Positions 48,538 through 63,918 of a DNA stretch of 64,000 nt are shown piece by piece. Position numbers and translations under genes: made by a program. Position 1 is the stretch's first letter. Every line of letters starts with the position of its first letter. The DNA is from Patescibacteria group bacterium (GTDB lineage Bacteria > Patescibacteriota > Minisyncoccia > UBA6257 > 02-FULL-45-10c): positions 169,141 through 233,140 of the forward strand of contig JAGWYA010000001.1 in assembly GCA_018969615.1 (NCBI GenBank), read 5' to 3'. The notes under the pieces are model-generated. The model worked only from the letters and a program-made list of their open reading frames with translations. It had not been told where the DNA came from and did not search any database.

Positions 48538-48604
48538 GGCGTGAAGAATACTGTGTGTATTTATCTATTTTAATACCCTCGCTTTGATAATACAATGGGC
48601 GCTC

Positions 48605-48823
48605 GGATAGTGCGTAGTGAGTGGCGCGTAGTTCGTAGTAAAGAAGGCGCGGAATCAAAGGCCTCATAATAACGCTGGAGCTTTTTCCTTGTTTTGGAAA
48701 TTATTATTTCTAAGCCGACCTGAGTCGGCTCCCAGACAAGGGTTGAGGCCGTCTACATGCTACTTTCTACGCGCTATCCCCACTGCCTACGGTCTACTGC
48801 CTACGTGCTATTTTATGCTACAC
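48605..48823. repeat. Palindromic intergenic element, site 1 (empty). A plus-orientation word array (48605-48643: GGATAGTGCGTAG TGAGTGGCGCGTAG TTCGTAGTAAAG), a central hairpin (48713-48730) and a minus-orientation array (48753-48823: ...CCACTGCCTAC GGTCTACTGCCTAC GTGCTA...).
   Basis: Arms are imperfect reverse complements (GGATAGTGCGTAG vs GGGATAGCGCGTAG). Strongly C-depleted on one strand. Confidence 0.7.
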
Positions 48824-48836
48824 TGGAATCAATTCT

Positions 48837-49382
48837 ATGAATCCGCAGGAGCCGCAGTACAAACTGATCGTCGGCCTGGGAAACCCGGGTCCTGATTATG
48901 CGAACACGTACCACAACGTCGGCGCCTTGGCAGTGGATCATCTCATTGAGGAAACGCGGCCGCTCACATTGAAAAAGAACGTTTCCAAGAAATTCCAATA
49001 TGCGGCGGACGGCAACATCATCTTCATTAAGCCGCTGACCTATATGAACGAATCCGGCGTCGCCGTAAAGAACGCGCTCAAGCAGTTCAAAGCGACTCCG
49101 GAAGAGATCCTCGTCATCCATGACGATTCGGATATCACGATCGGCGAATACAAGCTCTCGTATGAACGGGGTGCCGGCGGGCACAAAGGCATTGAAAGCA
49201 TCATCCAGCACCTCAAAACAAAGAAATTCTGGCGGCTCCGCATCGGCATCCGTCCTCCGGCGATCGCCGGCACGCCGCGTAAAAAAGCGGAGGAATTCGT
49301 CCTCAAACGGATCTCAGCCGCACATCGGCGGTTGCTGGAAACAGTTTTCACTGCGATCAGCGCGCATATGGAACAGCTGTAA
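48837..49382 (+). CDS. pth: Peptidyl-tRNA hydrolase.
   Basis: LIVGLGNPGPDYANTYHNVG signature. Confidence 0.95.
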   Translation: MNPQEPQYKLIVGLGNPGPDYANTYHNVGALAVDHLIEETRPLTLKKNVSKKFQYAADGNIIFIKPLTYMNESGVAVKNALKQFKATPEEILVIHDDSDITIGEYKLSYERGAGGHKGIESIIQHLKTKKFWRLRIGIRPPAIAGTPRKKAEEFVLKRISAAHRRLLETVFTAISAHMEQL

Positions 49383-49465
49383 TAGCACGTAGGGAGTAGG
49401 CAGTGGGCAGTAGTTAAATGTTAAAGGTCAAAGGTAAAAATCTCCGGCTGCTGCCGGAGATTTTT
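49383..49465. repeat. Half-element plus terminator, site 2. Plus-orientation words TAGCACGTAGGGAGTAGGCAGTGGGCAGTAG (49383-49413), then hairpin TCTCCGGC-TGCT-GCCGGAGA plus T5 (49436-49465).
   Basis: Read directly. Terminator for pth and for the PilMN gene. Confidence 0.65.
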
Positions 49466-50981: not shown

Positions 50982-53900
50982 TTAATTCATTACCTGAAGA
51001 ACAGCAGTTCCCGAAACCGCAACCGGAGGGACGATCGTAAGCGAGGTCATCGCAGCGATTTTGGCATAACAAGACGTGTGCTCATTGAAGACAGACGTTT
51101 CACTTCCGTAGGTACTTGCGGCATTGTAGGTGAACATTTGGCGAGCCGAATTTGCCGCTGATGACGTAAACGGATCTATGATCAAATTTATATCATCAAC
51201 GCTTGCCGTCATCGTTCCCGTACTTAGCTGGAACGGACAGCCGGTCCCAGCAGTAGATCCGATGCCGCCGGATGCCGCCGCTGAATTGCTGTAATTCCCG
51301 GCATAAAGATATGCGGCAGTTGAAGAATTATTAACACGGAAATACCATGTTCCTGCAGTATTTGTCGTCGGAGTTAAATTTGCGGATAACCGATAAACCG
51401 TACCCGTGGTTAATCCCGAGAATGTAATAGTGGTTGCTCCGCTCACTGTTTGATTCGAAACAGTCGTCCAAGCACCCGAACCGACAACCGGAGTTGCGGC
51501 GTAGTATGCATCAATAATAATCACGCCGGAACCACCGGCACCTCCTTGACATGCGCCAGTTCCGCCTGAGCCGCCTCCGCCAACGGCGTAAGAATAAGAC
51601 GACGCAAGGCTCGTGATCATGAATTTTGCATATTCACCCGCGCCACCACCGGCGGAATAAGCAGGTGATCCGGCATTCCAATAACAGCCACCGCCGCCGG
51701 CGCCTGAATTTGCCGCACCGGCTACGCCGTTACCCTCAGATCCATTATATGTTGCACGGCCGCCGCCGCCGAAGAATGAGTTTCCGCCTCCGGTAGAATA
51801 ACCATCGGGAGTCGAGCCGCCACCACCGGCGATACGCAATAAAGCGGTTCCCGTTCCGCCAGTTCCGCCAGCACCACCGCCACCAGTAGTCACCGCCGCA
51901 CCGCCGCCGGGATTTGCCGTAACCCCATCAAATGAAGTTGCGCCTCCGGTTGATCCAGGGCCAGCACTTGTATGAGCACCCGAACCACCACCACCACCAC
52001 CGACCATCTGTATCACTAAATAGGCAGCGTTTGCAGGGGTTGTATATGTCCCGGTTCCCGAGGTAAGCACTGTTTCAGTTGGCGGAAGTGCGGATCCTCC
52101 CCCGCCCGCCGTCGTCTGGATCGTACCGTCGGGGAACTTAATACCGCCGGTTTCGGAGTAGATCGTCCCCTTCACGTCCAGCGCCGAATTCGGCGTCGTC
52201 GTCCCGATGCCGACGTTACCTGAAGAAGTGATAACCATATGTGTATTCGCTCCGCCGGTCATAAACTCGAGATTGCCCGCAGCATCTCCAACATTATAGT
52301 TGTCAGCAACCGCTGATTGGAGCGTGCCAAGATTGTTCGTCCATTTTATTAAACCGTTCGCGGTCGCCGTATTGCTCGTATTAAGGGTAAGTGTTGGTGC
52401 CGAAGAATTTAGCGCGGAAAGCTGCAAAAGACTTCCCGGCGTCGTGGTTCCAATGCCGACATAACCGCTGTTATTGATCGTCAAACGAGTCGCGCCATTC
52501 GTATTATCGTAGATCCGGAAATTATGAGTCGCATCAATCAAGCCGTTTCCGATCGTCCAGCCGCTGACGCCGTCATCGGTTCCGAAACCAAGGCCAACTG
52601 ACGAAACCGAAGTACCGATCAACTGAGCACTGCCGTTAACCGATAATAGATGTTGAGGATTTGTTGTCCCAATACCAACATTCCCGCCGTTTGGATTGAT
52701 CGCAAGCGGATGCGTCAGATCAGCGCGATTCGAATAATGCGCTTGGATCCATCCGTATGCTCCTCCTGTGTAAGCAGCTCCGATGTTAACCTCAGGGTCT
52801 CCAACGCTCAAAGACCCAAACTGCGCACCTACGGTAACCGGGGATGCTGCCGTTTGCGGGGCGCTGTCCCCCGTATTAACGGTCAAGATACTCCCGGGCG
52901 CCGCCGTCCCGATGCCGACATTACCGGTTCCTGCAGTACTATTCAAAAGAAGGTTACCGCCTCCAGTCCACGCATCAATGCCGAGATCGTTTCCGGTCCG
53001 GAATACTCTTCCCATCGTTGTCGCACCGGAGGTCAATAACGCCCAATCAGGCGATGCCGCCGTCGAATTGATCCGGAACGGCGTAGTACCGGTAGTCGCA
53101 TCAACGGTAAGCATATGATCGGGTCCTGTTGTCCCGATACCGACATTCCCGCCGTTTGGATTAAGAGCTAAAGGATATGTTGCCCCACCACCTACTTGGA
53201 GGTACCCTGTCCATGGAGGTGCGTTTAACAATCCCATGTTTATTTTCCCCGTTGTATTAGCATGTATTTGAAATTCAGTGCTTCCAGCCGTGCTCGGATT
53301 TGCTTCCGCCGTAGTATCAACCTCGAGCGCCGCTCCCGGATTCGTCGTTCCAATGCCCACATTTCCCGTATTGTAATACGCACTGGTCCCGTTCTGGGTC
53401 CACAATCCGCCCTGACTCGCCGATGTCTGAGTCGTTCCATCGGCGTACCGGATGCCGCCGGTCGTATACACCGTCCCGACTACGCTCAAGGCCTGCGAAG
53501 GCGAGGTGGTTCCGATACCGACATCTCCATTGCCTGATTTCACGACTAAGACTGGTGTTCCTCCGCCATTAGCAGTATTGAAGTAGATATCGCCATAGTT
53601 TGTCAGCACCTGCATCAAGTCTCCGCTTATCGTATTCTTAATATCCGTACGATGACCGGATGGAGATTGATTGATCGCAAACGTTTGGGTTCCTGCATTA
53701 CCAATAGAAAATCCATTGTCATAACCAGGCGTTCCCATAAGAGAAAGATAGGCACCTACCGATTGGTTGACCACGGCTAAGGTCCCCTGCGGCGTTGTTG
53801 TTCCAATGCCCACATTGCCGCTTGAATCTATATGCAGAGCGCTCACCGGATTATTGGCCGTCTTCGAAATGTCGAAATCAAGCGTGCTCAGATAACCACC

Positions 53901-56807
53901 GAGCGTTGTTGAAACGATTGAAGAGATCGGCCCTAAGTGATCCGCAAAACTCAATGTCTGCGTATCGCCCGCAATTGCATTGTCATTTCTGATCCAGGGA
54001 TCTGGGTCGCTCGTTGGTTTATAAATTTCAAGCGTGGCATTTGGGCTCGCTGTGCCGATACCCACTTTTCCGCCAACCTGCGTCAATGCCGTTTCTTGAG
54101 CGTATGTTGTCGGTGCCGTCACGGCCGAAGTTGCGGTTGAAGCCGTAAAGGCGTCGGCATTAATGCCCTCCTGCTTGATAACGATATAAGCCGTTCCCAC
54201 GTTTGCCCCATCAGTCGCCGTTACCCGCAAGCGAAGCGACAAAACAGTTCCTGACATCATTTCATCAAGTGCAAAATCATTCCCGGAATATGCCCCCGAA
54301 CTTGAAATAGGCAAAACTGTTTCCCATGTAGCATTTTGCTGGCCATATTGGATCGGAAGAATATACTGCTTCGCGGCCGAATAACCGTTTGATGGTACCG
54401 TCACCGAGATCCGCAAAGATCCTCCACCGTCCGTAAAGGCAAAACTGCCGATATCAACCTCATTATTGACCGTCAACGGCAAGGTGCGGGTCAACGGTAT
54501 AATATTTGCATTCGTAAACTTGACGTCACCGCTTCCGTCAATCGTCAGCCTCGTCACGCCATTCGTATTATCATAAATGCGGAAATTATGCGTTGCATCA
54601 ATAAGGCCGTTCCCGATCGTCCAACCGCTGACGCCATCATCGGTTCCAAAGCCAAGCCCAACCGAGCCGGTCGCGGTGCCGACTAGCTCGGCGCTACCAT
54701 TTACAGAAAGAAGGTGGTTCGGCGTAATATTTCCGATGCCGACATTGCCGCTCATAAAAACAGTATTAGCAAATGTATTATCCCTGCCAAAGTAAAGATT
54801 CCCGCCATTCGCCTGCGGATCAATATTAACGCCACTCCCCCAAGCTAATAATCTCAAAGATCCTGTCAAACTTGATGGATAGGTTACTAAAAGGGACGTG
54901 CTCGAGGTAGACGAAGAAACTTCTAGAGTTCCTCCCGGATTCGTTGTCCCGATACCGACAGCTCCGGCATCCGTAACCGTAAGCCGAGTCTGATCAGTCC
55001 CCTGAACAACGAAATTGCCGACTGAATCTTGGCCTATATCGATAAAACCAGACCCTGCTCCCTGGAAACGAACTTGCGGGCCTGCGCCGTTAGCACCAGT
55101 CCATTGCCCAACAAGCACCGTCCCTAGATAATCGGCATTATTAGCACTCACCGAGAGCCTTCCGGTTGTGCCAACAACATCGAGATTATAGGCTGGATTC
55201 GTCGTTCCAATACCGACATTGCCGGTGTTGTAATAAATATTCGAGCCATTTGAAACCCATAACCCTCCCGCCGAAGTCTGAAGCGAACCGTCAGGATACT
55301 GGATCCCGCCGGTCGCATAGACCTTTCCGGCGACGCTCAACGCCTGTGATGGCGAAGTGGTTCCGATACCGACGTTGCCGTTATTCACTATTCTCATCCT
55401 CTCCGGCGCTGCAGTACCCGCTACTTGAGATGCATCTGTATAAAAACGGATCGATCCATCGCTTGGATAGCCGATCCCAGCAAGGTTACCGGTTGAATCA
55501 TGAGAAGGCGTCGCTTGGGCAATTCCATTCCAGTTAAAATTATATCCGCCGCCATGACCGCCGCCGTTATCTAAAGTCGCAACACGCGCGTAGGAAAGAT
55601 TGCCCAGACGGAATTCACTCGCCGAGCTGATCCCATTCACATCCAAGAGCGATCCCGGGTTTGTCGTCCCGATACCAACATTCCCGTTCGTCAATACGAC
55701 CAGTTTTTGCGCCCCACCTTCGCTTAAGGCAACCGGCTGGCTTCCGCCGTTGATCGTAAAAAATCCACCCGGAGCGGCTCCGCCATCTTGGATCGTTGAC
55801 GCATTCGGGAACGAAATCCCTTCCACCGGGATCGCGTTACCGCCGATCGCGATACCCTGAAGCGTCCCGGCGCGAATACCGCCATTTACATCAAGTGCGT
55901 CTGTCGGATTCTGTGTGTTGATACCGACGTATCCCAAACTATTGACGTTAATCCCAAGCACGGCGCCACCGTCGCGACCAAGATACATATCGCCATCACC
56001 TCCGATATATCCCACCGCGCCCTCGAATGCACCGCTGGGGCCGAACATCTGAATACTCTTATTATAATCAGGTGCTACCGAAGGATCGGTGTACATTTTT
56101 ACCGCATATCCCGCACCCACATTGATACTAAGCGGATTCGTGCCAACTCCAGCCGACCCGATCCCAACACCGCCATTCGAATCAATTGATAACCGAGTTA
56201 CGCCGCTCGTATTGTCATAAATACGGAATGTGTGTGTCGAGTCGGTCAAACCATTTCCGATCGTCCAGCCGCTGACGCCGTCATCCGTTCCGAATCCGAG
56301 ACCAACCGATGAAAGCGAGGTGCCAATGAGCTGAGCATTGCCGTTCACGGAAAGAAGGTGCTGCGGGGCAGCCGTCCCGATACCGACATTGCCGTTCGCA
56401 GCGAGGATCGACATTTTCGTACCCTGATTCACACGGAATGCAAGATCATGGGCAGTGTTCAATTCCATGCCTGCATCCCAGGCGGCGCTGTTATCATGGA
56501 AATAATATCCGAGCACGGCGCCGGCGCCCGCAAGACCAATGCCGCAATTCGATGAATTCGGACACTCAACCAGAAGCGGGTTATTGGTTGGAAAAGAGGC
56601 TGAAGTTAAAAGAGAATTCCCGCCATGAACATACAGGGTCGTTCCTGTGGTGGGCGCCGCGCCTCCGATATCCAATGATGCCGGCAAGTTTCCCGATGGC
56701 GGTGATGTGCTCGGTTCAGTCCAAGCCGCAAAAACCACGTATGACGAAAGAAGCAACAACGTCGTTACCAGGAAAATAGTTGCCGTGTTCTTCACTAAAC
56801 GCAACAT
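50982..56807 (-). CDS. Giant secreted fiber/adhesin-like protein (about 1940 aa) with tail-fiber-type GNVGIGTxxP repeats and a Gly-rich C-terminal region.
   Basis: Start at Met54 of the track ORF (MLRLVKNTATIFLVTTLLLLSSYVVFAAWTEP signal peptide). More than 15 copies of ...NGNVGIGTT(N/S)P... and ...LSVNG.A.L.G... repeats. C-terminal poly-Gly tracts. Confidence 0.8.
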   Translation of the reverse strand: MLRLVKNTATIFLVTTLLLLSSYVVFAAWTEPSTSPPSGNLPASLDIGGAAPTTGTTLYVHGGNSLLTSASFPTNNPLLVECPNSSNCGIGLAGAGAVLGYYFHDNSAAWDAGMELNTAHDLAFRVNQGTKMSILAANGNVGIGTAAPQHLLSVNGNAQLIGTSLSSVGLGFGTDDGVSGWTIGNGLTDSTHTFRIYDNTSGVTRLSIDSNGGVGIGSAGVGTNPLSINVGAGYAVKMYTDPSVAPDYNKSIQMFGPSGAFEGAVGYIGGDGDMYLGRDGGAVLGINVNSLGYVGINTQNPTDALDVNGGIRAGTLQGIAIGGNAIPVEGISFPNASTIQDGGAAPGGFFTINGGSQPVALSEGGAQKLVVLTNGNVGIGTTNPGSLLDVNGISSASEFRLGNLSYARVATLDNGGGHGGGYNFNWNGIAQATPSHDSTGNLAGIGYPSDGSIRFYTDASQVAGTAAPERMRIVNNGNVGIGTTSPSQALSVAGKVYATGGIQYPDGSLQTSAGGLWVSNGSNIYYNTGNVGIGTTNPAYNLDVVGTTGRLSVSANNADYLGTVLVGQWTGANGAGPQVRFQGAGSGFIDIGQDSVGNFVVQGTDQTRLTVTDAGAVGIGTTNPGGTLEVSSSTSSTSLLVTYPSSLTGSLRLLAWGSGVNIDPQANGGNLYFGRDNTFANTVFMSGNVGIGNITPNHLLSVNGSAELVGTATGSVGLGFGTDDGVSGWTIGNGLIDATHNFRIYDNTNGVTRLTIDGSGDVKFTNANIIPLTRTLPLTVNNEVDIGSFAFTDGGGSLRISVTVPSNGYSAAKQYILPIQYGQQNATWETVLPISSSGAYSGNDFALDEMMSGTVLSLRLRVTATDGANVGTAYIVIKQEGINADAFTASTATSAVTAPTTYAQETALTQVGGKVGIGTASPNATLEIYKPTSDPDPWIRNDNAIAGDTQTLSFADHLGPISSIVSTTLGGYLSTLDFDISKTANNPVSALHIDSSGNVGIGTTTPQGTLAVVNQSVGAYLSLMGTPGYDNGFSIGNAGTQTFAINQSPSGHRTDIKNTISGDLMQVLTNYGDIYFNTANGGGTPVLVVKSGNGDVGIGTTSPSQALSVVGTVYTTGGIRYADGTTQTSASQGGLWTQNGTSAYYNTGNVGIGTTNPGAALEVDTTAEANPSTAGSTEFQIHANTTGKINMGLLNAPPWTGYLQVGGGATYPLALNPNGGNVGIGTTGPDHMLTVDATTGTTPFRINSTAASPDWALLTSGATTMGRVFRTGNDLGIDAWTGGGNLLLNSTAGTGNVGIGTAAPGSILTVNTGDSAPQTAASPVTVGAQFGSLSVGDPEVNIGAAYTGGAYGWIQAHYSNRADLTHPLAINPNGGNVGIGTTNPQHLLSVNGSAQLIGTSVSSVGLGFGTDDGVSGWTIGNGLIDATHNFRIYDNTNGATRLTINNSGYVGIGTTTPGSLLQLSALNSSAPTLTLNTSNTATANGLIKWTNNLGTLQSAVADNYNVGDAAGNLEFMTGGANTHMVITSSGNVGIGTTTPNSALDVKGTIYSETGGIKFPDGTIQTTAGGGGSALPPTETVLTSGTGTYTTPANAAYLVIQMVGGGGGGSGAHTSAGPGSTGGATSFDGVTANPGGGAAVTTGGGGAGGTGGTGTALLRIAGGGGSTPDGYSTGGGNSFFGGGGRATYNGSEGNGVAGAANSGAGGGGCYWNAGSPAYSAGGGAGEYAKFMITSLASSYSYAVGGGGSGGTGACQGGAGGSGVIIIDAYYAATPVVGSGAWTTVSNQTVSGATTITFSGLTTGTVYRLSANLTPTTNTAGTWYFRVNNSSTAAYLYAGNYSNSAAASGGIGSTAGTGCPFQLSTGTMTASVDDINLIIDPFTSSAANSARQMFTYNAASTYGSETSVFNEHTSCYAKIAAMTSLTIVPPVAVSGTAVLQVMN

Positions 56808-56828
56808 GTTCTTATTGTACCATTTTTT

Positions 56829-56948
56829 AGGGCAGTAGTCCGTAGCCCGTGGGCAGTGGGGATAGTAAGCAGGAAGTAGTGCACGGACAGTAGAAATATA
56901 GTGCGTAATAGTACACACCCCCAGTGCATCCAGTCGAGGATTGGATGC
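56829..56948. repeat. Element arm plus duplicated gene fragment, site 3 left. Plus-orientation words (56829-56904), a roughly 55-bp decayed duplicate of the 3' end of gene 57515..58801 including the 16-mer CCCCCAGTGCATCCAG (56908-56923), and a hairpin GCATCCA-N19-TGGATGC.
   Basis: Alignment of 56880-56940 to 57516-57575 is about 80% identical. 16/16 core identity. Confidence 0.65.
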
Positions 56949-56966
56949 GCCTAACCGAAGCTCCAT

Positions 56967-57155
56967 TTATTTTTTATATGCGATCCCCAGATCTTTGCAA
57001 ATTTTCTTTGCCAAAATTTCATCGATCTCGCTATGCCGGGGAACCGTAGAGGTTCGATTGAGCGACGGATTTAAAAAGACGCTGTGTCTTGCGCCTTCTC
57101 TGGCAAGGACGCATCCGTTCTTGAACAGACGCCTTATCAGATCGTTCCGCTTCAT
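56967..57155 (-). CDS. hicA: HicA mRNA-interferase toxin.
   Basis: 62 aa. LIRRLFKNGCVLAREGARHSVF... is the YcfA/HicA pattern. Confidence 0.85.
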   Translation of the reverse strand: MKRNDLIRRLFKNGCVLAREGARHSVFLNPSLNRTSTVPRHSEIDEILAKKICKDLGIAYKK

Positions 57156-57162
57156 TATTTTG

Positions 57163-57384
57163 TTATTTCTGAGAAACCGTCAGAGGCTCTCTGATTATTT
57201 TCCCGGAAACTTCTTTCCGGGCAAACTCCCTGTTCGTCTCCAAGATCAGCAGCAAGGCTTCCTTAAGATTTTCCTTTGTTTCTTTTAAGGTTTTACCCTG
57301 AGTATTCACGCCCGGAATCTCCTCGATCCAGCCCAGATACCATTTTTTGCCCTTCCTGTAATTGGCGGTAAAGCGCTTTGTCAT
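57163..57384 (-). CDS. hicB: HicB antitoxin (UPF0150 RNase-H-like fold).
   Basis: 73 aa. KKWYLGWIEEIPGVNTQGKTLKETKENLKEAL. Adjacent to hicA. Confidence 0.8.
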   Translation of the reverse strand: MTKRFTANYRKGKKWYLGWIEEIPGVNTQGKTLKETKENLKEALLLILETNREFARKEVSGKIIREPLTVSQK

Positions 57385-57468
57385 ACTTTCAAAATAACAC
57401 GCTTCAAAAGGAAAAACAATTTAATTTCGCCCCGGATCCCGCATCAAGTGCGGAATGACAATGTGGCT

Positions 57469-57540
57469 GCCACCCCTACTCCCCACTACCTACTGCCTAC
57501 TCCCTACTTACTATTTAGTTCGTATGCACGTAATAATACA
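57469..57540. repeat. Element arm, site 3 right. Minus-orientation words CCACCCCTACTCCCCACTACCTACTGCCTACTCCCTACTTACTATT, running into the 3' end of gene 57515..58801.
   Basis: Reverse complement matches the plus-orientation array at 56829-56904. Confidence 0.6.
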
Positions 57541-58801
57541 CATCCCCCCAGTGCATCCAGCCGAGATCGGCATCATCCCAAGACCAACCGCTGAAGCGCC
57601 CTCCGGAATCGATCGAGACGCCATAGCTGCTGTTATCAAGCGCGGTGCCCGCCAAATGGATCCAGCTCCCCGATCCCATCACCTTCGCCCAACCGGTCAG
57701 CGTTTTCGGGAACGTGCCGGTCAATCCGCCGGGGATCGTCGCATTACAGGTTCCGCTCGGGCAACCCACCAGATCGGATGCCGTAAAACTGATCCAACCG
57801 AGAACATCCGACCAGGCATAGCCGTCCATCACGCCGGTCGTCGCGTTCACCGTCACACCGTAATTCGATGTCCCGCAACTCCCCTGATTGGAACAACTGA
57901 AGCTGATCCAGCCGAGATTCGAGTACGCCCATCCGGAGATCGCGTTCGTACCGCTCTGCGTCAGAATGCCATACGCCACTTCACTCAGTGATTCCACCTT
58001 CACTTCACCGGTCGCCTGGTTCACATCGAGGATCGCCTTCAGTTGGTGCGTGCGGTTCTGCATGCTCCCCAGCGAAATGATCTGGTCCTTGTTCAACCCG
58101 ACGCAATTCGGCGCCGGCTGGTCCGCGCACACGGTCACGTTTGCGATACTGCCGTCGGGGAATGACAGTGCATATTGGCCCGAAAATGTTTTATCGCGCG
58201 CGATCCGCAGCATTGCATCCTGGATCCCTGATTGCGCCGCCGCGAGCGCCTGCGCGTTCAACCGCGCATTCAGCTCCGTTTTACTGGTCAATGCATTGCC
58301 CACCAATAACGCGACCGCGATCTCAATAACCAGCCCGCCGATCATGATGACAAGCGGCAAAGCGGCGATGCCCCGCTTTGCCCGTAGTCCGTGGGCAGTA
58401 GGCAGTGGAGGAAAAGATACTTTCAGGCTCCGAAGTTTTCTCAAAAGCACATTCAGCATTTTCATAACCATCTCAAGAAGTTGCTCAACTTTTTTATATT
58501 CACTTTCATTCATAAGCATGTTCCGCTTTGCTATCTCAAGTTGAGTCTCCAGTTCAGCGCCGGAACCAAAAGCGATAGATAAGAATTGAATATACGATCC
58601 GTCAGAATTCCTTCGGTATCCTTCAGCAATATTCGAAGGAATAGAAACCGCCGCACGACGCATCTGAGACACAAGACCGAATCGCTCACTATCAGGAAAC
58701 TTATTTGTCAGCAAATAGATCTCATCAACAAGATCGATGCTCTTCTGCCATACGGTTAAGTTTTTATATGTTTTCAGTTCCATAATCTGTCTATATATCA
58801 T
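57515..58801 (-). CDS. In-frame fusion. N-terminal four-helix-bundle protein of the 23S-rRNA-intervening-sequence family (about 127 aa) joined to an atypical prepilin-like TM segment and a roughly 280-aa secreted domain ending in a GW-rich module shared with 62635..63918.
   Basis: GGGAGGT RBS plus ATG at 58799-58801. Residues 1-127 MIYRQIMELKTYKNLTVWQKSIDLVDEIYLLTNKFP...IAFGSGAELETQLEIA are typical 4HB (PF05635-like). No stop before KRGIAALPLVIMIGGLVIEIAVALLV. C-terminus GWISFSCSN...CG..NYG...GWISF...GWMHW. Confidence 0.6.
   Translation of the reverse strand: MIYRQIMELKTYKNLTVWQKSIDLVDEIYLLTNKFPDSERFGLVSQMRRAAVSIPSNIAEGYRRNSDGSYIQFLSIAFGSGAELETQLEIAKRNMLMNESEYKKVEQLLEMVMKMLNVLLRKLRSLKVSFPPLPTAHGLRAKRGIAALPLVIMIGGLVIEIAVALLVGNALTSKTELNARLNAQALAAAQSGIQDAMLRIARDKTFSGQYALSFPDGSIANVTVCADQPAPNCVGLNKDQIISLGSMQNRTHQLKAILDVNQATGEVKVESLSEVAYGILTQSGTNAISGWAYSNLGWISFSCSNQGSCGTSNYGVTVNATTGVMDGYAWSDVLGWISFTASDLVGCPSGTCNATIPGGLTGTFPKTLTGWAKVMGSGSWIHLAGTALDNSSYGVSIDSGGRFSGWSWDDADLGWMHWGDVYYYVHTN
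58382..58407. repeat. Left inverted arm of the 4HB cassette (CGTAGTCCGTGGGCAGTAGGCAGTGG). It lies inside the coding frame, encoding LPTAHGLR.
   Basis: Reverse complement of 58843-58874 (GTAGTCCGT identical, then GGCAGTGG words). Confidence 0.65.
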
Positions 58802-58807
58802 ACCTCC

Positions 58808-58874
58808 CTACTGCGCACGATCTACTTTTCTACTTTCTATTTCCACTGCCCACTGCCTACTCTCTACGGACTAC
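58808..58874. repeat. Right inverted arm of the 4HB cassette (...CCACTGCCCACTGCCTACTCTCTACGGACTAC), overlapping the stop of 58871..59809.
   Basis: See the left arm. Together the arms bound a roughly 390-bp segment of visibly lower GC (about 40% vs about 58%). Confidence 0.65.
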
Positions 58875-59809
58875 TTGCTAAGCCCTATCGAAACACTATC
58901 CACTTGCGGCGTGGCGTTTGCGGTATCAAAAATGATCTTGTACCGGAAATAGCGCGCATTGATATAAGGAGATGCCGGGATCGGAACCTGCACATTCGGT
59001 CCCGCGGGCTCCAGAAGCGATCCGTAACTCCATGGACCGCCGGAACTGTTCGAGGTCGCGATCTCAAATCCCACTTTTGATCCGCTCGGCTGGGTCCCCT
59101 GCCAGATAAAATAATTATACCCTGCTCCGTTCGTTTCCTGCGTATCATACGTGCTGGAAACCACTTCACACTGCTCGGAAGCGGCGTTACAGGTCGTGAG
59201 CGACGGCAAGATCGATCCCGGCGTACCGGTATAATTGACATTCGCTGATGAAAAAAACTGACCGTTCGTACGCGTGATCGGTCCCGCTTGTCCCGACCCG
59301 TTAGACCAATCGGTCTGCGTCACGGCGAACGACTGCCACCGCGTCACATAAAAAGAAGTGGAAACGGTCTGTGCGGCGCCCAAGACCGGGAACGAGGTCG
59401 TCACGGTTACCTTCCGGGTATAGGGATCATCCCCGCTTGAACTATAAGTGGCATCGATCAACCCCGCGGTCCGGGAAACCGGGTCCACATAAAACGAGCG
59501 CGTGAACGAAATATTATTCACCGTGACGGTCTCAGGGCCGACAGCGGATGCCAGAACCCCGCCGGTATTCGTCAGATGATAGGTGTTCGCCGAGCCCGTG
59601 GTCAGCGCATACAGATCGGGCCAATTCCCGCCTGAAAATGAACGCACCTCATCGCCCAGTGAATTATTGACGATCGTTGCGCTCTGACTCTTCGTATTGA
59701 ATTCATTGGTGCGGACGCTCACCACATACGCGCCGCCGATCCCCGTCAAAACCAGCGCGCCGATACCGAGCGCCACCAATACTTCCACTATTGACTGTCC
59801 GCTTCTCAT
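58871..59809 (-). CDS. Type IV pilin/pseudopilin-like protein (class III signal peptide).
   Basis: MRSGQSIVEVLVALGIGALVL: G then QSIVE with Glu at +5, and a hydrophobic helix. Ser/Thr/Asn-rich secreted domain. Confidence 0.7.
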   Translation of the reverse strand: MRSGQSIVEVLVALGIGALVLTGIGGAYVVSVRTNEFNTKSQSATIVNNSLGDEVRSFSGGNWPDLYALTTGSANTYHLTNTGGVLASAVGPETVTVNNISFTRSFYVDPVSRTAGLIDATYSSSGDDPYTRKVTVTTSFPVLGAAQTVSTSFYVTRWQSFAVTQTDWSNGSGQAGPITRTNGQFFSSANVNYTGTPGSILPSLTTCNAASEQCEVVSSTYDTQETNGAGYNYFIWQGTQPSGSKVGFEIATSNSSGGPWSYGSLLEPAGPNVQVPIPASPYINARYFRYKIIFDTANATPQVDSVSIGLSK

Positions 59810-59824
59810 GAACTTATTCTAACA

Positions 59825-60005
59825 TAGGCAGTAGTGAGTAGGCAGTTGGCAGTAGGGATAGTGAGTAGGAAGCAGAACGTGGGCAGTAGAAATAGTAAGT
59901 AACGAGTAGGCAGTGGCGCGTAGAAAGGATGAGATACAAAAATTCCGACGAAGAGTCGGAATTTTTTACTACTGCCTACGTGCTACTTTCTACCTACTAT
60001 TTCGT
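59825..60005. repeat. Palindromic intergenic element, site 4 (empty). A plus-orientation word array (59825-59927: ATAGGCAGTAG TGAGTAGGCAGT TGGCAGTAGG ... GTGGGCAGTAG ... AGTAGGCAGTGG), a central terminator hairpin TTCCGACG-AAG-AGTCGGAA plus T6 (59943-59967), and minus-orientation words (59968-60005).
   Basis: Read directly. One strand is almost devoid of C outside GCAG. Confidence 0.75.
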
Positions 60006-62469: not shown

Positions 62470-62480
62470 ATGTTTAGTAT

Positions 62481-62638
62481 AACATAGGAATAGTACGTAG
62501 GAAGTAGCACGTGGGCAGTAGAAATGGTTAGTAGTAAGTGGCTCGTAGGCAGTGGGGATAGTCCGTAGTAAGTTGGCAGTGGTACGTAGAAAAAATTCTC
62601 TACTGCCTACTCACTACGAGCCACTCGCTACTATCTAG
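62481..62638. repeat. Palindromic intergenic element, site 5 (empty). Plus-orientation words (62481-62590: ...GTAGGAAGTAGCACGTGGGCAGTAG...GTAAGTGGCTCGTAGGCAGTGG...GTTGGCAGTGG) then minus-orientation words (62600-62638: CTACTGCCTACTCACTACGAGCCACTCGCTAC).
   Basis: Arms share a 12-nt exact inverted core CTACGAGCCACT / AGTGGCTCGTAG. Confidence 0.75.
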
Positions 62639-63918
62639 TTCACTCTCGCCCCATAGCTCACGCTTCCGCAGGCGCTGGTATTACTACAATTAAAGCTCAA
62701 CCATCCAAGCGTCGTCGAGTCCCAGCCCCAGCCTGACAGCGTTCCATTTGCAGCCAACGACACGCCGTATGTACTTGCATTCTGCGCCGTCCCACTTAAA
62801 TGGAGCCAACTTCCCGTCGAGATGATCTTCCCCCATCCGGTCATTGCCGTCGGGAACGGACCCGCAAGACCGTTCGTGATCTTCGCCACACAATTCCCGC
62901 TCGGACAGCCGGTGAGATCGTTCTGATTGAAATCGATCCAGCCGATCGTCGGCGACCACGCATACCCATTCAGGATCCCCGTGCTCGCATCAGCGTTCAC
63001 GCCATAGTTCACCGTTCCGCACGTTGTCGTATTACTGCAATTAAAACTGATCCAGCCGCTGTTCGACGACCAGGCAAAACCGGACATCGGCACATACGTC
63101 GTATTCACGGTCAGAATAAAATTCGCGGTTGTGGTCGCGGTCCCATCCCCGATCTGCACGGGCAATGTCACGCTTCCCGACGGCGTTGAAATACTTGTCG
63201 TTAAATTCAAGGTAGCGCTGCAATTCGGCGTACACGTCGCCGGATTAAACACCGCCACGACACCGCTCGGCAAATTACTGACGGAAAAGGCACCCGCATG
63301 CGGGATCCCCGCAGTAACGGTCACGGTCGCGGTTGTTTGCGTCGATCCGCCCGCCTGTATCGTCGCGGTCGTCGGCGACAGGCTCATCGTCAATTGTTCA
63401 CCCGATGCGCTCTTTGAGGTTGTGATCAATCCGCTTCCGCTTAAAACCGAAATATATCGGACGATTGACGTGTCGGCCGTCAACGCCAGCGTGATCCCAT
63501 GATCTATCGCCGGGATCCCGGTCACTTTCGGAAAGTCGATCTCTTCCGTATTTCCCTGCGCCGGAGTCAAAAATTCGACCGACTTTGGCAAATAAACCGT
63601 ATCAGTCACCGTTCCGGTCGCATACGAATCTCCGTAAAAAACCTTATAATAATGGCCCCCTACTGCCGGCGCGGCATCCAAATAAACCCCCCAGGCGGAA
63701 TTCTCATACTGCGATTGCGCATTCTGCTGCGCAGCGACCAAATTATCCTGAAGCTGTTTCGCAGCGGCATCCAGCTCAGTGGTCGAACGGAACACCGTCG
63801 GCAAACTCATAACCGCGGCGGTACCCAAGATCGCCGTGAGCGCCGTAACGATAACGATCTCCAACAGCGTGAAGCCGGCAACGTGCTTAGTCCGCAAGGA
63901 TGATCTTTTAGGCGTCAT
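62635..63918 (-). CDS. Type IV pilin-like protein with a large C-terminal domain ending in the GW-rich module shared with 57515..58801.
   Basis: MTPKRSSLRTKHVAGFTLLEIVIVTALTAILGTAAV is a canonical prepilin leader (G then FTLLE, Glu at +5). C-terminal module GWISFNCSN..CG.VNYG...GWIDF...GWLSFNCSN. Confidence 0.8.
   Translation of the reverse strand: MTPKRSSLRTKHVAGFTLLEIVIVTALTAILGTAAVMSLPTVFRSTTELDAAAKQLQDNLVAAQQNAQSQYENSAWGVYLDAAPAVGGHYYKVFYGDSYATGTVTDTVYLPKSVEFLTPAQGNTEEIDFPKVTGIPAIDHGITLALTADTSIVRYISVLSGSGLITTSKSASGEQLTMSLSPTTATIQAGGSTQTTATVTVTAGIPHAGAFSVSNLPSGVVAVFNPATCTPNCSATLNLTTSISTPSGSVTLPVQIGDGTATTTANFILTVNTTYVPMSGFAWSSNSGWISFNCSNTTTCGTVNYGVNADASTGILNGYAWSPTIGWIDFNQNDLTGCPSGNCVAKITNGLAGPFPTAMTGWGKIISTGSWLHLSGTAQNASTYGVSLAANGTLSGWGWDSTTLGWLSFNCSNTSACGSVSYGARVN

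Follow-up and report, generated by a model that had tools for sequence, protein, structure and literature searches.

How does a toxin-antitoxin (TA) gene pair come to lie in a spacer of a type-IV-pilus-like operon, directly beside a second and broken copy of the end of the gene upstream of it? The locus that raises this question belongs to a Patescibacteria group bacterium (GenBank assembly GCA_018969615.1) and was analysed within 64,000 nucleotides of contig JAGWYA010000001.1 (positions 169,141 to 233,140 of the forward strand; this whole stretch is called the window, and its own numbering is used below). There, the genes of a HicAB system, hicB and hicA, stand between a pilin-like gene and the gene of a large surface protein. 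We think it fairly probable that the intact, foreign hicB-hicA pair was inserted in the operon spacer together with a long duplication of its target, the two copies of which we call H and H'. The argument turns on the following features.

57515-58370, minus strand: pilin-like gene, counted from the conserved RGIAALPL motif
57529-57600, minus strand: H, the functional upstream copy inside the pilin-like gene, coding for ...GWSWDDADLGWMHWGDVYYY
56904-56964, minus strand: H', the decayed, frameshifted downstream copy of the 3' end of the pilin-like gene
57515-57528, minus strand: tail of the pilin-like gene, its last four codons VHTN and stop, homologous to the VRIN-stop of orthologs and without a counterpart in H'
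57469-57514, no strand assigned: right arm, a single extended heptamer module that forms the 5' GTAG arm of the transcript
57385-57468, minus strand: leader, 84 nt from the right arm to the hicB start, with a weak promoter-like TTGATG-17-TTAAAT
57163-57384, minus strand: hicB antitoxin gene, 73 aa, intact (UPF0150, PF21748, E=3.7e-7)
56967-57155, minus strand: hicA toxin gene, 62 aa, intact (PF07927, E=3.7e-11)
56828-56901, no strand assigned: left arm, GTAG-type heptamer words on the plus strand, the 3' CTAC arm in the minus-strand transcript

H' begins 2 nt past the stop codon of hicA. Aligned with H (61 against 72 nt), it matches in 53 of 60 columns, with five gaps totalling 13 nt; the differences amount to 7 substitutions and 5 indels, and identity reaches 89% in a 37-nt core. 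The local alignment score is 29.5, compared with 8.7 +/- 1.4 for shuffled sequences (maximum 14; z about 15). An exact 16-mer, CCCCCAGTGCATCCAG, is present at 56918-56933 and 57545-57560 and nowhere else in the window, even with up to two mismatches allowed, where the chance expectation for such a repeat is 0.01. At E<=1e-4, H as a whole has one match in the window, H', giving two copies. Translated, H' reads DWMHWG, then, after a frameshift, VYYY, and is a relic of ...DLGWMHWGDVYYY, whose C-terminus GWMHWGDVYYY is kept in orthologs. An earlier description of this DNA made from its letters alone (the sequence-only reading) had reported a hicB-hicA cassette at 57384-56967 and a decayed copy of the upstream gene's 3' end, and both stand: the two genes have Pfam matches and are intact, and H' is the relic. 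The 16-bp direct repeat that it described does occur twice, though not at 56908-56923 and 57544-57559 where it had been placed, and the roughly 80% identity that it noted reflects real homology, which runs over 56904-56964 and 57529-57600 instead of 56880-56940 and 57516-57575. The stretch 56880-56903 is arm sequence with no homology to the gene end.

The cassette between the copies is complete. HicA is an mRNA-cleaving toxin that is neutralised by the antitoxin HicB, and the predicted TA function of this hicBA pair follows by analogy from that family knowledge. Like HicAB type II systems, the pair has a HicA domain (dsRBD-like fold; the PF07927 match covers residues 4-58) with the conserved catalytic histidine (His24, in ...EGARH24SVF...), the N-terminal (UPF0150, partial RNase H-like) domain of HicB, and genes 7 nt apart; it is set apart by having the antitoxin gene first and by a short, 73-aa form of HicB without a DNA-binding (ribbon-helix-helix or helix-turn-helix) domain. 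Both proteins align over their full length with about 80 relatives (HicB at 68-79% identity, HicA mostly at 58-76%), and a search of phage records and IMG/VR gave no match for this HicB, while a single distant match (49%) lies on a megaplasmid. DNA similarity to other hicAB loci is limited to 56965-57413, and the 3' edge of the cassette is therefore the hicA stop codon. GC content is 44.7% in hicBA, compared with 58.2% in the pilin-like gene and 52.9% in the window. The 564 bp between the repeat copies contain hicB and hicA only, the adjoining genes are of the pilus type, and no integrase or transposase is found among the neighbouring genes. As in insertions with long target duplication, a complete module lies inside an insert of less than 20 kb that holds no other mobility genes, and the direct repeat exceeds 30 bp and has two copies within 64 kb.

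Loci that lack the cassette are of particular interest here. Orthologs of the pilin-like gene (298-304 aa, 53-60% amino acid identity) were found on four contigs. In two of these, L003 and L004, the order of a 312-aa gene, the pilin-like gene and the large "AWTEP" protein gene is kept, with homologous neighbours on both sides; the next gene follows the pilin-like gene after 100 nt in L003 and 27 nt in L004, with no hicAB and a single gene end. Since syntenic orthologous loci have neither hicAB nor the duplicate, and since the composition of hicBA is foreign, sequence comparison supports the view that hicAB between the pilin-like and large surface-protein genes is an insertion. The sequence-only reading had held that a duplicated segment in relatives without hicAB would disconnect the duplication from the insertion; the opposite was found in L003 and L004, which are distant orthologs. 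The single-copy gene end without an insert is thus seen at loci of about 55-60% amino acid identity, and a match at the DNA level is available only for a sister cassette, at L204, compared with L208 and L209.

Sister cassettes bear on the duplication more widely. A metagenome scan returned at least 299 HicB relatives, of which the best 80, 68-79% identical, were used; HicA adjoins the homologous HicB in 76 of these 80 loci. When flanking repeats were sought at an ungapped score of at least 20, long direct repeats of local sequence flanked 10 of 67 cassettes, compared with 0 of 175 control positions taken from these contigs (Fisher p=1.6e-6). These repeats are 22-88 bp long (longer with gaps) and 85-100% identical, and nine of the ten are found just twice in the locus concerned. 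Between the upstream copy and hicB there are usually 33-100 nt, which leaves room for the cassette's own TTGACA-N17-TATAAT, and the downstream copy starts 0-40 nt past the hicA stop in most sisters (92 nt in L126). The insert between the copies measures 415-612 bp, as against 564 bp in the window. In L204, the cassette lies between nrdA and nrdB and has on either side ~45 bp from the 3' end of nrdA, with the stop; in L208 and L209, whose NrdB is 90% identical, the site is empty, with the TAA of nrdA, 9 nt and the ATG of nrdB, and the sequence is single-copy. Sister cassettes, including one with a verified empty site in a relative, therefore support the target-duplication reading.

Two further observations concern the sister loci. 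The same nrdA-nrdB junction holds an unannotated insert of ~2 kb in L206 (380-2530), with three open reading frames (ORFs) of 76, 114 and 210 aa, flanked by a duplicated, decayed nrdB 5' end; in related Patescibacteria this junction is an insertion hotspot, empty in L208/L209, with hicAB in L204 and with the three-ORF insert in L206. In addition, a 17-mer, ATTTAGGCCGAAGTTGA, overlaps a -35-like TTGA and recurs on one strand every 390-1450 nt (mostly 390-750) between small genes, and also at both hicAB edges, in loci L156, L172, L155, L163, L179 and L180/L184/L186. It is absent from the window, and looks like a lineage-specific promoter or cassette-boundary motif.

The history that we favour would run as follows. 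The cassette would have entered the spacer 3' of the pilin-like gene, probably in the loop of a resident palindrome, and its insertion would have duplicated at least H, the last ~70 bp of the gene, and most simply the gene tail and 5' arm as well. The upstream copy H would have stayed under selection as the gene's real end, and the downstream copy H', free of selection, would have gathered substitutions and indels. A deletion at microhomology of the TACG(TG)C type between tail and arm word may then have stripped H' of its last 12 nt, its stop and any duplicated arm; the gene tail, TTACGTGCAT, resembles the arm words, CTACGTGCTAT, and so offers such microhomology. An addictive pair resists loss, which would explain why both hic genes are intact while the duplicate decayed. 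In the operon transcript, the arms would form a stem of ~30 bp around hicBA, and RNase III would cut this stem, by analogy with the intervening sequences (IVSs) of 23S rRNA, freeing the cassette RNA from the pilus mRNA. Under operon readthrough, the stem around the cassette would be a natural point of RNA processing.

Several observations weigh against this history. The majority of the sister cassettes tested (57 of 67) have no strong repeat; these may be old insertions or the outcome of a different insertion mode. Some of the repeats at sister loci are not duplications, being the recurring motif ATTTAGGCCGAAGTTGA or, in L169, a multi-copy hairpin, although L169 is the sole such case among the ten strong repeats and its removal leaves 9 of 67 (Fisher p=6.3e-6). 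At the locus itself, H' ends 12 nt before the stop, so that the last 12 nt of the gene and its stop (57515-57528) are absent from it, and the CTAC arm directly follows H' without a copy of the tail and GTAG arm. A one-step duplication is therefore insufficient, and at least one further deletion must be assumed. Moreover, simple duplication around an arm-bounded element does not fit, since H is outside the right arm but H' is inside the left one. No close relative of the locus was found in the databases searched (the best ortholog has 60% amino acid identity, and the one identical contig, L001, is the same sequence), and the empty site for this locus is seen only as protein-level synteny. Finally, a promoter scan of the 84-nt leader found no canonical sigma-70 promoter, so that hicBA expression may depend on operon readthrough; at the same position, sister cassettes have TTGACA-N17-TATAAT, which by its letters reads as a promoter. 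The insertion footprint proposed in the sequence-only reading is thus borne out by orthologs without an insert and by the sister duplications, and falls short with respect to the missing tail, which calls for one more deletion.

The best of the alternatives is an allelic replacement with one illegitimate end, although we consider it unlikely. A donor would already have carried the 3' part of the pilin-like gene, its stop, the GTAG arm and hicBA; homologous recombination inside the pilin-like gene and an illegitimate join just upstream of the recipient's last ~60 bp would have brought these in, and H' would be no product of insertion but the recipient's original gene end, left stranded. This would explain, with no second deletion, why different sequence follows H (tail, stop, GTAG arm) and H' (CTAC arm), and the 12% difference and the indels between the copies fit two alleles. 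However, H' would still be without its own last 12 nt and stop, and the original insertion is only shifted to an unseen donor; no donor-like relative was found (60% amino acid identity at best). True duplications are seen at sister cassettes, with an empty site in one case.

Two of the remaining alternatives give the arms a part, and the arms have to be considered as a family. The inverted heptamer-word flanks that had been read around hicBA are present, and they pair in the predicted minimum-energy fold of the transcript, with 31 long-range pairs and a predicted duplex energy of -49 kcal/mol. The left arm consists of two 32-nt modules (56828-56859 and 56862-56893) and a junction, and lies 21 nt from the ATG (56807) of the next gene; the right arm starts directly after the stop codon of the pilin-like gene and carries the reverse complement of the left-arm words. 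Arms of this kind are arrays of the 7-nt words NNNGTAG and GGCAGTR, in a 32-nt module ATAG-N3-GTAG-N3-GTAG-N3-GTRG-N3-GTAG with a repeat period of 34 nt; all 11 occurrences of the core GTAGGCAGT in the window lie inside them. The same architecture, in transcript order a 5' GTAG arm, a loop and a 3' CTAC arm, is found in five spacers between 48.6 and 62.6 kb and occupies most intergenic spacers of the operon; the arrays were not detected in the window's first 48 kb. The other members are:

58372-58890, minus strand: element of the same palindrome family with a four-helix-bundle (4HB) gene, arms 58374-58419 and 58821-58888
58420-58801, minus strand: 4HB (23S rRNA IVS protein) gene within it (PF05635, E=1.1e-38; TIGR02436)
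59814-60003, no strand assigned: empty palindrome, three modules, a loop with a terminator-like hairpin, one module
62476-62640, no strand assigned: empty palindrome, three modules (34-nt period), then one
48600-48814, no strand assigned: palindrome of the same family upstream of pth

In every element the predicted minimum-energy fold pairs both arms (30-45 pairs). When 5' and 3' arms are combined freely, all pairings are of about the same quality, at -25 to -69 kcal/mol. This marks the arms as members of a generic family and not as the ends of particular elements, and element-specific pairing or covariation was rejected for want of any specificity across the combinations. Inverted flanks exceed shuffled sequences in only 3 of 66 homologous hicAB loci, and period-7 arrays are not enriched near hicAB (0.13 per kb, compared with 0.12 elsewhere). 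On these two counts the arms were rejected as cassette ends, and the tie between arms and cassette insertion that the sequence-only reading had drawn does not hold: the flanking arms are a resident palindrome family. A hairpin-directed duplication was likewise rejected, since, of 10 duplicated targets, only 1 has a better fold than shuffled sequence. No Rfam family matches the arms, and the window contains no rRNA.

Could the arrays themselves have copied the gene end? Local tandem duplication or slippage in recombinogenic heptamer arrays, with hicAB arriving separately, later or earlier, is an account to which we give little credence. The arrays are repetitive, the number of modules varies between spacers, and the gene tail TTACGTGCAT is similar to the arm words CTACGTGCTAT. 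However, H' lies within 2 nt of the hicA stop, as repeats do at sister loci, which would be a coincidence if the two events were independent, and none of the empty palindromes in the window has a copy of the upstream gene's end.

Less probable again, to the point of being improbable, is a composite IVS-like or miniature inverted-repeat transposable element (MITE)-like unit, made up of the arms and hicAB as TA cargo, with the direct repeat as its target-site duplication. The neighbouring 4HB gene does lie in the same kind of arms, and 4HB genes with inverted heptamer arrays are found in other phyla (L005, L096, L115). But the repeat copies of such a unit should both lie outside the arms, and H' is inside the left one; the rarity of inverted flanks (3 of 66) and the lack of heptamer enrichment at homologous cassettes, together with arms that are interchangeable between elements, also speak against it. 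Lastly, a similarity of H and H' by chance or through the internal GW(I/M)xF/W repeats of the pilin-like protein is effectively refuted: the gene does have internal repeats (a third, weak copy, 78%, of an 18-mer lies at 57649-57666), but the 16-mer has a chance expectation of 0.01, the 60-nt alignment stands ~15 standard deviations above shuffles, no part of the window other than H' matches H at E<=1e-4, and H' is outside any gene body. We thus return to insertion with long target duplication, and take the locus to be a real, if decayed, insertion footprint.

The palindromes have further properties of their own. Arms are typically asymmetric, the 3' (CTAC) side having three modules to a single one on the 5' side (59824-59923, 62490-62589), and because 7 is not a multiple of 3, their TAG words put stops in all three frames after each gene. 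Loops of empty palindromes (59924-59968 and 48700-48735) hold a hairpin of their own, short, GC-rich and bordered by A/T runs (for example AAAAATTCCGACGAAGAGTCGGAATTTTTT), which resembles a bidirectional terminator. The pth gene (48837-49382, plus strand) has a full palindrome before it and a lone GTAG arm after it (49383-49413), beyond which lies a bidirectional terminator-like hairpin (49435-49462). A pattern scan of genome contigs with GTAGNNNGTAGGCAGTRG, for which about 9,000 chance matches are expected in 596 Gb, showed, among the matches listed, that the core word recurs in many phyla in (GTAGGCA)n...(TGCCTAC)n palindromes. These loci (L006-L125) come from Mesorhizobium, Acidobacteriota, Chloroflexota, Bacteroidota, cyanobacteria and others, and many of those with a single match are probably chance matches; examples of palindromes are L037 5736-5895, L061 605-886, L102, L115 558-1196 and L096 1135-2204, those of L115 and L096 enclosing 4HB genes. 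At orthologous loci, the same stop is directly followed by other heptamer words, (TGAATGA)n in L002 and an AAGTCC type in L005, with arrays at L002 8322-8349, L003 2938-3040 and L005 2483-2517, and two contigs end inside an array. L005 (1160-1640) also has a 4HB gene in the corresponding position, with heptamer words of another kind (AAGTCNN) on its flanks, and its 3' arm supplies the start codon and N-terminus of the pilin-like gene (MKFRLYRLYGHYGL...). To judge from their sequences, the heptamer words seem to be genome-specific and their placement conserved.

The surrounding minus-strand cluster of type-IV-pilus-like genes spans 49.4-64 kb of the window and includes a PilM-like gene, pilin-like genes with an N-methyl motif, a Kelch protein and a 1,941-aa repeat protein. 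The reading frame of the pilin-like gene stays open upstream, through an arm and into the 4HB gene, so that ORF 57515-58801 (minus strand) encodes 428 aa; an identical NCBI protein is annotated "four helix bundle protein [Patescibacteria group bacterium]", and the NCBI annotation of the fused 4HB/pilin-like ORF is a 420-aa "four helix bundle protein". The fusion is in frame, through an arm-encoded linker, PPLPTAHGLRA. Orthologs of the pilin-like gene are separate genes of ~300 aa, with a 15-aa leader before RGIAALPL that is missing in the window gene. On the other side of the cassette, the ORF of the large repeat protein (50982-56966, minus strand) is open for 159 nt upstream of its likely start, the ATG at 56807. 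It runs through the CTAC arm and H' because their words have no stops in that frame, and it may for that reason be over-extended by gene callers.

According to a 2020 review of type II TA systems, the way in which these systems move and integrate "remains unelucidated" (PMC7167474), and our literature search found nothing specific on TA cassettes with long target duplications or on named heptamer-palindrome elements outside rRNA. Taken alone, the locus is ordinary selfish-gene archaeology; it is the recurrent signature of its family that bears on this open question. In one abundant hicAB family we see many independent insertions, of which a measurable fraction keeps long local duplications, and one verified empty site. 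TA integration thereby becomes tractable by comparison, with respect to target choice, duplication length and cassette boundaries. On this reading, an insertion mode hitherto described for restriction-modification (RM) genes applies to TA genes too. Only tentatively, we suggest that the short-HicB hicAB family may be a self-contained mobile cassette of Patescibacteria, independent of transposase, that duplicates 20-140 bp of target in operon spacers and gene ends, with the heptamer palindromes of this genome as landing pads or RNA-level insulators (IVS-like, cut by RNase III) for 4HB and TA cassettes in essential operons. If this is true, short-HicB hicAB would be the first TA family with a recognisable integration signature. 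The locus also has heptamer palindromes of the IVS type, a type familiar from rRNA, in the spacers of a protein-coding operon, and different selfish cargos can be held there.

How, then, does the locus compare with known systems? With integron cassettes, insertion sequences (ISs) and MITEs it shares a small, promoter-poor gene unit, an array-like context and flanking repeats. It differs from integron cassettes, since no attC-like conserved site is common to the loci, and from ISs, since the repeats are of local sequence and, at 22-88 bp, far longer than IS target duplications. Nor does it have the build of an IS, MITE or composite transposon: H' lies inside the left arm, the repeat exceeds 60 nt and there is no neighbouring transposase.

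Palindromes and TA genes are also known to meet in the folA-apaH spacer of E. coli O157:H7, which holds ccdO157 and repetitive extragenic palindromic (REP) sequences (PMC7167474). As with REPs and bacterial interspersed mosaic elements, an intergenic palindrome family within operons shares spacers with TA cassettes. Unlike these, the palindromes described here are heptamer-word arrays with a 32-34 nt module and no REP consensus, and unlike REP landing sites, they are not statistically linked with hicAB elsewhere. No gene like that of a REP-associated tyrosine transposase was seen in the window, which was not searched systematically for one.

The closest described relatives of the arms are the 23S rRNA IVSs. 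In Coxiella, the 23S IVS combines a 28-bp inverted-repeat stem and tandem heptamer repeats with an S23p (4HB) ORF and is excised by RNase III (PMC4990558), and 4HB genes have been noted interspersed within cas operons (PMC3936711). In common with the IVSs of Coxiella, Leptospira and others, the elements in the window have terminal inverted repeats, a predicted long stem around a small ORF, and heptamers in their ends; the enclosing stem is predicted around hicBA, and the 4HB cargo (PF05635/TIGR02436), absent from it, is encoded by the neighbouring element at 58372-58890. Unlike IVSs, they occupy spacers of a protein-coding operon and not an rRNA helix, one carries hicAB, and many copies are empty. 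RNase III cleavage here is a prediction by analogy.

The closest parallel to the insertion itself comes from RM genes. A passage in Furuta et al. 2010 (PMC2853133), citing Nobusato et al. 2000 (Gene 259:99), describes their insertion with target duplications of 46-400 bp that overlap the 3' ends of genes. As in that mode, a gene-sized addictive module with no transposase or integrase is flanked by site-variable direct repeats of more than 30 bp, made of local, otherwise single-copy sequence, which often overlap the 3' end of the adjacent gene, and, for the sister cassette at L204, the empty site in relatives is single-copy. Unlike the RM case, the cargo is a type II TA pair of ~0.45 kb, the host is a member of the Patescibacteria, the downstream copy has aged and been truncated, and the empty site of this particular locus is known from distant orthologs only. 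The footprint is thus best read as a TA-cassette example of insertion with long target duplication, in a spacer that also carries IVS-like heptamer palindromes.

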